DNA of 5,192 nt from a virus (lineage: Duplodnaviria; Heunggongvirae; Uroviricota; Caudoviricetes). The notes below the pieces were generated by a model that saw only the letters and a list, made by a program, of their open reading frames with translations, was not told the origin of the DNA and did no database searches. This document shows positions 2,286 through 5,024 of the stretch, piece by piece. The translations under genes were made by a program, and so were the position numbers. The stretch is from IMG/VR virus record IMGVR_UViG_2778261277_000011. One strand, given 5' to 3'. The stretch's first letter is position 1. Each line of letters starts with the position of its first letter.

Positions 2286-2562
2286 TCTCAACAGCCACTT
2301 TGATATCTTCCTGGGTTCTCTGTGACTCCAGTGCGATCTGCTGTTTTGCATGCTGGTTAGCCTCCAGAACTGTATTGACGATTTGTAGTGATTGCAGGAC
2401 GTTATTGGTAATGGCTGTTGCTGATTCAGCATTTCGTACAGCCTCATCAGCACGTTTCTTTTCGTGCTGATATTTGCTGTAGTAGTGGTTGGTAGACCAG
2501 ATGAAAGAACCGATGACAGTAAAGAAGAATGCAGAGATAGCCAGCTTATAGCTCAACTTCAT
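2182..2562 (-). CDS. Rz: Rz-type i-spanin (inner-membrane spanin subunit)
   Basis: 126 aa; N-terminal TMD (LAISAFFFTVIGSFIW) followed by STNHY, resembling lambda Rz (WAVNHY) as recalled; predicted coiled-coil periplasmic region; start overlaps the endolysin 3' end by 17 nt; contains the out-of-frame Rz1. Confidence 0.75.
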   Translation of the reverse strand: MKLSYKLAISAFFFTVIGSFIWSTNHYYSKYQHEKKRADEAVRNAESATAITNNVLQSLQIVNTVLEANQHAKQQIALESQRTQEDIKVAVENDDCASRAVPAAAADRLRKYADSLREHSGYTTTN

Positions 2563-3022
2563 TTACCACCCCACCAGCCTCTTTAAACCGGGAAATCAGG
2601 TCACCGATTTTATGTTCATACTGACCGTAACCTGCACCAGGTAACGACGCCCAAATATTGCTGCAACGATCGATAGCCTGACGAATATCGCCGCGATCAA
2701 TCATCGGTAAAGCGCCACGCTCTTTAATCTGCTGTAATGCAACAGCATCCTGGCTTTTAGGAGAGAAGTCTGTCAGCCCTAACTGCTTGCGGTAAGCATC
2801 CCACCAGCGCGAAAGAAGTTGATAACGGCCTGCAGCTGTTGATTTGAGTTTCGGGTTTAGCGTGACAAGCTTGCGAGGGTGATCGGAGTAATCAGTGAAG
2901 AGTTCTCCACCGACAATAACATCATAACCGTGGTTACGTGTCGGTTGTCGCCCGTTATCCGTTCCTTCTGACCATGCCACCATATCGAGGAAAGCTTTAC
3001 GCTGGGAATTTAGTACCTGCAT
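2546..3022 (-). CDS. R: Endolysin, lambda R-type lytic transglycosylase
   Basis: 158 aa, MQVLNSQRKAFLDMVAWSEGTDNGRQPTRNHGYDVIVGGELFTDYSDHPRKLVTLNPKLKS...; near-identical over long stretches to lambda R as I recall it, including the catalytic-Glu context WSEGT; AAGGAG RBS 6 nt upstream, embedded in the holin 3' end. Confidence 0.9.
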   Translation of the reverse strand: MQVLNSQRKAFLDMVAWSEGTDNGRQPTRNHGYDVIVGGELFTDYSDHPRKLVTLNPKLKSTAAGRYQLLSRWWDAYRKQLGLTDFSPKSQDAVALQQIKERGALPMIDRGDIRQAIDRCSNIWASLPGAGYGQYEHKIGDLISRFKEAGGVVNEVEL

Positions 3023-3025
3023 AAA

Positions 3026-3361
3026 TTACTCCTTAGAGCCACCAAACTTATTACCGATTACTCTCATTGCAGCCCCACGAATAGCATCGACCCCGATCAG
3101 CCCAACGCCGCCACCAATGGCAACAGAAAGAGATTTAGGCCATCCGACATACTCAAGAGCGGATGCAAAAGTCAGCGTCAGAGCACCACAGAGCAAAATC
3201 TCGAGCGTTTTTCGTTTCCAGCCACCACCACCGCCAAAATAGGCAATGCGCAAGCCAGCCATAACGATCGACATAATCACTGCGCCCAGCGGCGTATCTC
3301 CACGCCACCAGCTCTGGAACAACTCCAGCCAGTCCGGCCAGGTATTTGGGTTATGAGGCAT
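3026..3361 (-). CDS. Holin (three predicted TMDs); start assigned to the internal ATG at 3361, possible upstream extension to GTG at 3457
   Basis: MPHNPNTW... with hydrophobic segments LGAVIMSIVMAGLRIAYF, LEILLCGALTLTFASALEYVGW and LSVAIGGGVGLIGV, and a charged C-terminal tail; GAGGTGA SD upstream of the 3361 ATG; immediately upstream of the endolysin. Confidence 0.7.
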   Translation of the reverse strand: MPHNPNTWPDWLELFQSWWRGDTPLGAVIMSIVMAGLRIAYFGGGGGWKRKTLEILLCGALTLTFASALEYVGWPKSLSVAIGGGVGLIGVDAIRGAAMRVIGNKFGGSKE

Positions 3362-3437
3362 TTCGTCATCTCTCACCTCGCGATATTTGCGGGTGCTGTG
3401 TTGGAAATAAAAAGGCCACGCAACGTGACCACCAGAA

Positions 3438-4490
3438 TTATTTCCCCACCAGTTCACTTACCTCTTTCACCGTCTGATTAAACCGCTCTGACTCAAGTTC
3501 AACACCTAACGCCCGACGCCCCAGCGCCATTGCCGCTTTTATTGTGGAACCGGATCCCATAAAGAAATCAGCAACCAGATCGCCTGGTCGACTACTGGCA
3601 CTGATTATTTGCCGGAGCATATCCGCAGGCTTCTCACACGGATGTTTACCCGGGTAGAACTGAACGGGTTTATGCGTCCAGACGTCGGTATAAGGCACGG
3701 AAACTGATACGGAGAAATAGCGCCGGAGAGTTTTAAACTCATCCAGCAATTCAGAATATTTGCGATTCAGTGAATCATAAGATGCCACCAGCTGGTGGTG
3801 TGGTTGCTCCAGTTGTTGTTCCTGAAACTTCTCTGCCGCTATACGGGAAAACAGTGCCTGCAACTTCCGGTAGTCAGCCTCATTCGGCAACTGCCACTGA
3901 CTGGCACCAAACCAGTGGGAAACCATATTTTTCTTACCAGTGGCTTCGGCAATCTGTTTTGCCGTTATACCCAGTTCGGCACGAGCATCCCTGAAATACG
4001 AAATCAGCGGTGCCATTATGTGCTGTTTGAGTTGACTTTCTTTTGCCGCATAGCCGTCACTTTTGCCGCGATATGGTCCCTGGTAATGTTCAGCAAACAG
4101 AACGCGTTCTGTTGCGGGAAAATATGCGCGCAGACTTTCTTTATTACACCCGTTCCATCGTCCGGACGGCTTCGCCCAGATAATATGGTTAAGAACGTTG
4201 AAACGTTCACGCATCATGATCTCGATATCAGATGCGAGGCGATGTCCACAGAACAGGTAAAGGCTTCCGGCAGGTTTCAGCACCCGCCAGAACTGGGCCA
4301 GACAGTGGTCCAGCCACTTCAGGTAATCTTCGTCCCCTTTCCACTGATTGTCCCAACCGTTGGGTTTCACCTTGAAGTACGGCGGATCGGTAACAATCAG
4401 GTCAATGGAATCATCAGGCAGGGACTGAATAAAATGCAGGCAATCAGCGTTGATTAAATCAACACTGTTTATTTTTACAGTATTTTTCAT
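3438..4490 (-). CDS. DNA methyltransferase, beta-class amino-MTase (probable N6-adenine, possibly N4-cytosine); orphan, no restriction partner in window
   Basis: 350 aa; motif IV DLIVTDPPYF near the N-terminus and motif I FFMGSGST near the C-terminus (order IV then I = beta class); ATG at 4490..4488; located in the late operon between the leader and the holin. Confidence 0.88.
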   Translation of the reverse strand: MKNTVKINSVDLINADCLHFIQSLPDDSIDLIVTDPPYFKVKPNGWDNQWKGDEDYLKWLDHCLAQFWRVLKPAGSLYLFCGHRLASDIEIMMRERFNVLNHIIWAKPSGRWNGCNKESLRAYFPATERVLFAEHYQGPYRGKSDGYAAKESQLKQHIMAPLISYFRDARAELGITAKQIAEATGKKNMVSHWFGASQWQLPNEADYRKLQALFSRIAAEKFQEQQLEQPHHQLVASYDSLNRKYSELLDEFKTLRRYFSVSVSVPYTDVWTHKPVQFYPGKHPCEKPADMLRQIISASSRPGDLVADFFMGSGSTIKAAMALGRRALGVELESERFNQTVKEVSELVGK

Positions 4491-4834: not shown

Positions 4835-4953
4835 GTCTTTTTTCCTTCTGGTTAACATGACATACCAATAACTCTTGTCTAAAAAGCCAGCAAGATAAAA
4901 AGTCAGTATTCACGATCACCAGCGTGTTTACCGTACTGCCAACATCAAGGCAC

Positions 4954-4976
4954 AAAAAAACCCGCTCAGCGGCGGG
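4954..4976 (-). terminator. Intrinsic terminator on the minus strand (candidate tR'-like late-leader terminator)
   Basis: GC-rich hairpin CCCGC-N6-GCGGG (4961..4976) followed on the minus strand by a T7 run (plus-strand A-run 4954..4960); lies about 50 nt downstream of the candidate late promoter. Confidence 0.65.
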
Positions 4977-5024
4977 TTCTTAAATCTTATCAACGGTAGA
5001 CATACAAAGCCCATCGTTGGAAAA

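Follow-up and report, generated by a model that had tools for sequence, protein, structure and literature searches.

The holin gene S of phage lambda opens with Met1-Lys2-Met3, and its antiholin carries one extra positive charge; relative to the holin, S107 and S21-71 each have one additional positively charged residue at the N-terminus, which alters topology (PMC9636201). The lambda leader also folds a hairpin in which the Shine-Dalgarno (SD) sequence is the 3′ arm (CCCCUUAUUGGGGGU), and the sdi role of this stem-loop has been defined (PMC3359269). The dual-start motif is present in the holins of Sf6 and SfX and absent from those of SfI, SfII, SfIV and SfV, and how the latter four phages time lysis is a published open question (PMC3851460). 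The missing dual start in SfV-type holins is already known, and the question addressed below is what lies in front of such a holin.

Our window is a 5,192-nucleotide stretch of Caudoviricetes DNA (IMG/VR record IMGVR_UViG_2778261277_000011). The phage SfV (U82619 / NC_003444) is 95.6% identical to it in nucleotide sequence over window positions 2900-3700. The SfV late region runs Q, terminator, orf47, orf48 methylase, terminator, S, R, Rz/Rz1 and HNH, which is the order found in the window, and the 336-nt holin start and the methylase-S terminator are shared. The window has a low-GC insert of ~1.1 kb that SfV lacks, placed between Rz/Rz1 and HNH.

The lysis cassette and its holin

The minus strand of the window is the late-gene and lysis region of an SfV-like lambdoid prophage. 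In the direction of transcription it contains the 3′ end of Q, a tR′-like terminator, a 72-aa ORF, a methyltransferase gene, S, R, Rz/Rz1, the low-GC insert and HNH. The genes that matter here are as follows.

4858-4640, minus strand: 72-aa ORF, from the list of open reading frames
3438..4490, minus strand: N6/N4 DNA methyltransferase, 350 aa (PF01555, E=2.7e-42; annotated as orf48/DNA methyltransferase in SfV and E. coli)
3026..3361, minus strand: holin S, 111 aa, lambda S family, single start (PF05106, phrog_126, hydropathy, 336-nt annotation)
2546..3022, minus strand: endolysin R, lambda R-like (annotated as lysin/endolysin/GH24)
943-593, minus strand: HNH endonuclease, from the gene order of the window

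The holin matches PF05106 (Phage_holin_3_1) with E=5.9e-27 and 94.4 bits (cut-off 23.8) over profile positions 2-99 of 99, and phrog_126 (holin/anti-holin) with E=1.2e-39. Its Kyte-Doolittle profile has three peaks, the 19-residue windows above 1.2 starting at residues ~21-28, 51-56 and 76-81 of the short form, and R starts 4 nt past the S stop. Lambda S likewise belongs to PF05106, has three hydrophobic segments and lies just upstream of an R-type endolysin. By its profile match, its three hydrophobic segments and its place beside the endolysin gene, the protein is a class I holin of the lambda S family, with an N-terminal tail before TMD1 that is ~20 residues longer than in lambda S. The GenBank and RefSeq records of SfV and the PGAP annotations all place its start at 3361 (336-nt gene). 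A 221-bp segment is 100% identical in E. coli O150:H6 FEX669, where PGAP calls the 336-nt holin WP_001120501.1; the segment is at least partly present in 503 of 5426 complete E. coli genomes (~9%), and at least 80% of it is present in 352. The locus is an ordinary SfV-like lysis cassette with a single-start lambda-family holin.

The open frame upstream of the holin start

The initial annotation drew attention to the reading frame in front of the holin. It suggested that a GTG start inside the methyltransferase gene might yield a longer, positively charged antiholin, or else that the extension is simply non-coding. We assign the following features to this region and to the first part of the holin gene.

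3362..3457, minus strand: in-frame stretch of 32 codons, open by chance, from GTG 3457 to the codon before ATG 3361 (open frame, shuffles, charge, hydropathy, indels in relatives)
3405..3430, minus strand: predicted rho-independent terminator, hairpin GGUCACG-UUG-CGUGGCC (3430-3414) followed by UUUUUAUUU (3413-3405) (scan, MFE, relatives, annotation)
3374..3395, minus strand: predicted sdi-like hairpin CACCCGC-AAAUAUC-GCG(A)GGUG, 3′ arm = SD (MFE, centroid, comparative folding, covariation)
3370..3379, minus strand: SD region GAGGUGAGAG (anti-SD duplex -7.2 kcal/mol; the most conserved block across leaders)
3277..3369, minus strand: 30-codon overlapping ORF from an out-of-frame ATG (3369-3367), approximately at the ancestral Met1 position (ORF list, DNA of relatives, SD spacing)

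The anatomy is as the initial annotation described it. The holin frame stays open upstream of ATG 3361 as a minus-strand ORF at 3026..3457 (143 aa), whose GTG start codon (3457-3455) is directly preceded by an in-frame TAA (3460-3458). The ORF overlaps the methyltransferase CDS (3438..4490) by 20 nt, and the 32 residues added before ATG 3361 read (V/M)NWWGNNSGGHVAWPFYFQHSTRKYREVRDDE, with the peptide stretch NWWGNNSGGHVAWPFYFQHSTRK. An open frame of this length is not above chance level. When the 300 nt upstream of the holin were shuffled 5000 times with dinucleotide content preserved, an open stretch of 32 codons or more arose in 21% of the shuffles (P=0.21), and 13% had a start codon as far out as 3457. 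The positive charge did not survive inspection: the extension holds four K+R against four D+E, for a net charge of 0, plus two His. It also has no hydrophobic segment (top 19-residue Kyte-Doolittle mean -0.59), and the PF05106 profile aligns only from residue 35 of the 143-aa form onward, equivalent to residue 3 in the short form. Neither a long nor a neutral extension fits the definition of an antiholin, since antiholins are described as having one extra positively charged N-terminal residue (PMC9636201).

A product of GTG 3457 might arise, for example, by re-initiation after the methyltransferase stop on Q-antiterminated transcripts, and its long charged N-terminal tail would then block export of TMD1 and make it an antiholin. 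Ribosomes that stop at the methyltransferase end (3440-3438), 17 nt downstream of GTG 3457, could in principle re-initiate, and in lambda an N-terminus that is unable to cross the membrane does give antiholin behaviour (summarised in PMC9636201). A GAGGU stands just upstream of the GTG, but it ends 1-2 nt before that start codon.

The frame was then compared across relatives. We collected 92 loci with the window's holin and a further 160 centred on relatives of Klebsiella and Salmonella type; a search of genome contigs gave seven loci, and the diversity came from three IMG/VR scans. Both the GTG and the open frame are found in 66 of the 72 methyltransferase-linked loci sampled, a count that carries little weight since these sequences are nearly identical, and the exceptions are more telling. 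In four methyltransferase-linked loci that are >90% identical over this stretch (L037, L039, L040 and L058), a 1-nt insertion (CAAATAATCGCG) puts the GTG out of frame. In L035 and L036 the GTG is missing through a change from GTAAGTGAAC to ATAAACGAGC that is conservative in the methyltransferase frame, and both loci have, in addition, two 1-nt indels that offset each other. SfII, SfIV, the L077 group, L088, L005 and L006 have an in-frame TAA 9 nt (three codons) before the ATG, and L053 has an in-frame stop five codons upstream of the holin ATG. In all of these contexts the holin protein is 95-100% identical and the upstream DNA is different. The spacer between SD and ATG also differs by indels among allele types (GACGAA, AACTACAA and CGATATTC). 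With these 1-nt indels, the loss of the GTG, the in-frame TAA codons and the other upstream modules, the upstream start and frame are not conserved among the homologues. A synonymous/non-synonymous test on the extension was dropped because the near-identical loci have too few substitutions, and the indels are the informative changes.

A mosaic boundary within the leader bears on the same point. The 3′ end of the methyltransferase gene, the terminator and the part of the leader that ends with GCGAGGUG (window 3374) also precede the S21-type pinholin (68/71) cassettes of Ayreon, cdtI and mEp460, where the upstream module is identical and the leader reads ACACAGCACCCGCA...GCGAGGUG. The holin of these three phages belongs to an unrelated family and has its own Met-Lys-Ser-Met dual start. 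Since the module also precedes an unrelated holin, the apparent extension belongs to a transferable noncoding module. In RefSeq, the S21-type holin of mEp460 is annotated through the terminator, at 279 nt (92 aa) versus 207-216 nt, which is the same kind of artefact. JGI gene calls likewise adopt the 3457-type long holin in a 140-aa cluster (P0005) of 98 member sequences. The JGI cluster and the mEp460 record show that a terminator-containing leader is called as coding by some pipelines, and such calls can spread wrong holin N-termini.

Predicted terminator and SD hairpin in the leader

The predicted terminator has a stem of 7 bp with five GC pairs and a loop of 3 nt, and it appears in both the MFE and the centroid structures; the U-run after the hairpin at 3430-3414 is also given as TTTTTATTT. 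A terminator is annotated at this place in the SfV and Ayreon records ("putative rho-independent terminator", in the methylase-S gap in SfV). In all 14 contexts folded, T5-6ATT directly follows a GC-rich hairpin with a folding energy between -6.3 and -13.5 kcal/mol, and the 5′ arms and loops vary by context (GGCCACG-UUG, GGCCAC-GUCAG, GGCUGCC-UUCG, GGCUGCGC-UGAU and GGUCGC-GAUA). Within the terminator the window departs from SfV at one position, where a G-U wobble stands in place of a G-C pair (GGUCACG vs GGCCACG). The arms are out of register in the MAFFT alignment, and each sequence was folded singly in place of column-wise covariation. A consensus terminator scan found three terminators, this one among them, against 2.3 expected in shuffles, a count not above chance; the terminator call is therefore based on conservation and annotation. 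With a GC-rich hairpin, a U-tract and a structure that is kept despite sequence change, the element has the predicted features of an intrinsic terminator. It would presumably insulate S-R-Rz/Rz1 from transcription that lacks the Q-antiterminator modification.

A search of the whole window against Rfam (E<=1) gave no match in 3362-3457. The sole Rfam matches were weak Leu/Trp-leader hits at 4952-5022, reflecting another terminator.

The second element covers the ribosome-binding site. The main SD, GAGGUG, lies at 3379-3374 and is predicted to pair with a CACC(C)GC arm on its 5′ side. A hairpin forms at this site in each of the 35 representative leaders folded (33 from the holin family, the S21-type and lambda), with the SD core inside the 3′ arm in 34; in L136 the SD region is paired only in part. 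In the MAFFT alignment, pairing in the outer helix reaches 96.4%, and slid controls do not exceed 61%; three of its four pairs show double changes (e.g. CACC/GGUG to CAUC/GAUG), none of 500 shuffles attains the observed values, and RNAalifold predicts the helix independently. The inner helices were judged within each sequence class; they are class-specific yet complementary (CGC/GCG, UCCGA/UCGGA, GCUG/CAGC and UUCCG/CGGA). A shuffle control on SD pairing discriminates weakly (5.2 vs 4.4 of six SD nucleotides paired), the sequence upstream being rich in C. An arm swap favours SD pairing in the folding model, at -9.1 kcal/mol for cognate and -6.8 kcal/mol for non-cognate arms, a modest difference with ranks spread out that is not decisive. 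The structure immediately precedes the start, uses the SD as its 3′ arm and shows covariation, all of which is expected of an sdi-type hairpin, and it would probably tune initiation as in lambda.

Positions 3362-3457 are made up of the methyltransferase 3′ end, the terminator, the SD-sequestering hairpin and the spacer to the start codon. We put the probability that this stretch is a noncoding leader and not an N-terminal extension at roughly 0.9, and hold with the same confidence that it is untranslated and that the extension is an artefact of gene calling. It would thus comprise the last 20 nt of the methyltransferase gene and a 76-nt untranslated leader of the lysis cassette. Of the two possibilities raised by the initial annotation, the plain one, that the extension is simply non-coding, is the one that the shuffles, the conserved RNA elements and the indels in relatives bear out. 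The long antiholin form finds no support: the stretch is a terminator and an SD hairpin conserved as RNA with covariation, the frame or the GTG is lost in close relatives, other contexts have an in-frame TAA, the net charge is 0, the module is shared with an unrelated holin, and the true dual start of the family is Met-Lys-Met. Despite the open frame and GTG in most close relatives and the JGI calls, we consider a 143-aa product highly improbable, and no long product, or at most a low level of it, would be expected in vivo.

Start codons of the holin gene

The homologues show where the family's second start lies. Among 110 clusters of homologues containing the conserved WWRGDTP core, 81 have M[KR]M where the family usually carries it, as the very N-terminus in 77 and within a longer call in four. 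Four of the clusters (P0018, P0037, P0040 and P0046) read MKMPHNPNTWPDWLELFQ, which is the window N-terminus with "MK" in front, and some M[KR]M homologues have the N-terminus MKMPHNPNTWPDW, again "MK" followed by that of the window. The MKM-type subfamily members (such as P0018, P0040 and P0046; Salmonella/Klebsiella MKMHNDPHSW...) are 60-97% identical in protein to the window holin and share the SD block and the hairpin architecture with it. They keep ATG-AAA-ATG, whereas the window reads ATGACGAAATG, with the first ATG out of frame. The DNA of the MKM relatives is GAGGTGAGAGATCATGAAAATGCCTCAT and that of the window GAGGTGAGAGATGACGAAATGCCTCAT (in shorter form, ATGAAAATGCCTCAT and ATGACGAAATGCCTCAT; around ATG 3369, GAGAGATCATGAAAATGCCTCAT and GAGAGATGACGAAATGCCTCAT). 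From this comparison, ATG 3361 corresponds to Met3, an S105-type start.

In the SfV-type allele small substitutions and indels have destroyed the Met1 codon. Lambda keeps Met1, whereas in the window Met1 is lost and ATG 3361 is the sole in-frame ATG. Two further start codons share its frame, GTG 3376 within the SD and GTG 3457 at a distance of 32 codons, and no pair of ATG codons stands a few codons apart. Holin translation would begin at ATG 3361, the equivalent of Met3. With the Met1 codon gone, the gene would thus make one product only, the effector holin, with no antiholin isoform. The leader elements themselves belong to familiar types. That Met1 is lost while an sdi-like hairpin is kept is a minor new detail, and it bears on how SfI, SfII, SfIV and SfV time lysis (PMC3851460).

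In SfV-type alleles GTG 3376 shares the holin frame, five codons before ATG 3361. A start there would supply one extra Arg and give M-R-D-D-E-M-P-H-N... as a minimal analogue of an antiholin. We give this short dual start almost no credence. The codon coincides with the GUG of the SD, within the 3′ arm of the hairpin; it has no usable SD upstream (duplex -1.8 kcal/mol, spacer 0), and SfII-type and MKM-type relatives have it in another frame or with a TAA after it. The peptide it would add, RDDE, has a negative net charge, and the N-terminus gains no net positive charge from either longer form (0 for the 32-residue extension, -2 for the RDDE form).

The initial annotation had called ATG 3361 SD-supported; the evidence agrees that this is the real start, and the SD support is weak, for the main SD lies 12 nt from ATG 3361 and 4 nt from the out-of-frame ATG 3369. 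The latter is in the +1 frame relative to the holin and is present in all SfV-type leaders sampled. As an addition to the noncoding-leader reading, ATG 3369 might capture some of the initiating ribosomes into its 30-codon frame and so throttle holin synthesis, a translational substitute for the lost antiholin in which the hairpin sets the ratio. The better SD spacing, the retention of this ATG in every SfV-type leader, the retention of the hairpin despite loss of the dual start and the choice of the same ATG by gene callers in the frameshifted alleles P0014 and P0048 speak for it. Yet ATG 3369 is dispensable, being absent from the SfII/SfIV-type and L053-type leaders of the same holin; its 30-codon ORF lies inside the holin CDS, which masks any conservation of its own, and the ATG may be a neutral relic. 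A decoy start is possibly what it is, and this is speculation that we regard as unlikely. Its fuller version, which we think slightly more doubtful, would have lysis timed by the decoy: with the hairpin open, ribosomes would go to ATG 3369 and make a 30-aa nonsense peptide, and with the hairpin closed they would use a weaker GAGAG site and ATG 3361. If true, start-site competition would replace the protein-level inhibition exerted by an antiholin.

A leader block shared by two holin families

The block made up of the methylase 3' end, the terminator and the leader adjoins two unrelated holin families, one lambda S-like, as in the window (leader segment 3374-3437), and one S21-like, as in the phages Ayreon, mEp460 and cdtI (sampled loci L095, L096 and L097). 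The homology between the window and these three loci breaks at the Shine-Dalgarno sequence, and this position of the breakpoint suggests that the conserved leader serves as a recombination joint linking lysis-cassette modules. The S21-type holins are annotated in the three loci as follows.

968-1246 of L096 (mEp460, NC_019716): S21-type holin
1040-1246 of L095 (Ayreon): S21-type holin
1030-1245 of L097 (cdtI): S21-type holin

As annotated, the holin is 92 aa long in the RefSeq record of mEp460 versus 68 aa in Ayreon and 71 aa in cdtI. The mEp460 call starts 5 nt 3' of the methylase stop codon and spans the terminator shared with the window; it is probably over-extended.

Public protein collections also hold over-long forms of the window's own holin. 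The JGI cluster P0005 (140 aa, 98 member sequences) starts at the equivalent of GTG 3457, and in the NCBI cluster P0001 (119 aa, MCEVRDDEMPHN...), which has a different leader, the start is an ATG located eight codons upstream and before the Shine-Dalgarno sequence. A SfII-type holin 97% identical to the E. coli/Shigella holin of the window was found on a 3.6-kb contig (L005, DATGTY010000133.1) labelled as part of a Chitinophagaceae metagenome-assembled genome, where the contig is probably a binning contaminant.

Covariation and an out-of-frame ATG in the leader

In the leaders of three Salmonella-type relatives (L202, L203 and L210), the Shine-Dalgarno sequence reads GGAGAUG, not GGAGGUG, and the opposing hairpin arm reads CAUC, not CACC. 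The double change is compensatory, with the hairpin kept and the Shine-Dalgarno sequence weakened.

An additional ATG lies out of frame near the holin start.

3367-3369, minus strand: out-of-frame ATG
3277-3369, minus strand: ORF of 30 codons opened by this ATG, overlapping the 5' end of the holin gene

This ATG sits approximately where relatives carry Met1 of their Met-Lys-Met dual start, and its Shine-Dalgarno spacing of 4 nt is better than the 12 nt of the holin ATG. It is found in every SfV-type leader sampled and in none of the SfII/SfIV-type leaders.

Flanking features of the window

4951-4976, minus strand: second intrinsic terminator, CCCGC-CGCUGA-GCGGG followed by U7
about 1000-2100: low-GC insert between Rz/Rz1 and the HNH gene
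1253-1023, minus strand: small ORF of the insert, 76 aa
1846-1553, minus strand: small ORF of the insert, 97 aa

The second terminator, about 110 nt 3' of the Q stop codon, occupies the same position as lambda tR', and its counterpart in SfV is annotated. A simple terminator scan of the window did not detect it, and an Rfam search returned weak Leu/Trp-leader matches only (E=0.1-0.2).

The insert has a GC content of 33-39%, versus about 50% in its flanks. It looks like a moron-type insertion, because in SfV the HNH gene directly follows Rz1. One of its two ORFs had no match in Pfam or PHROG; the other matched phrog_31861 (function unknown).
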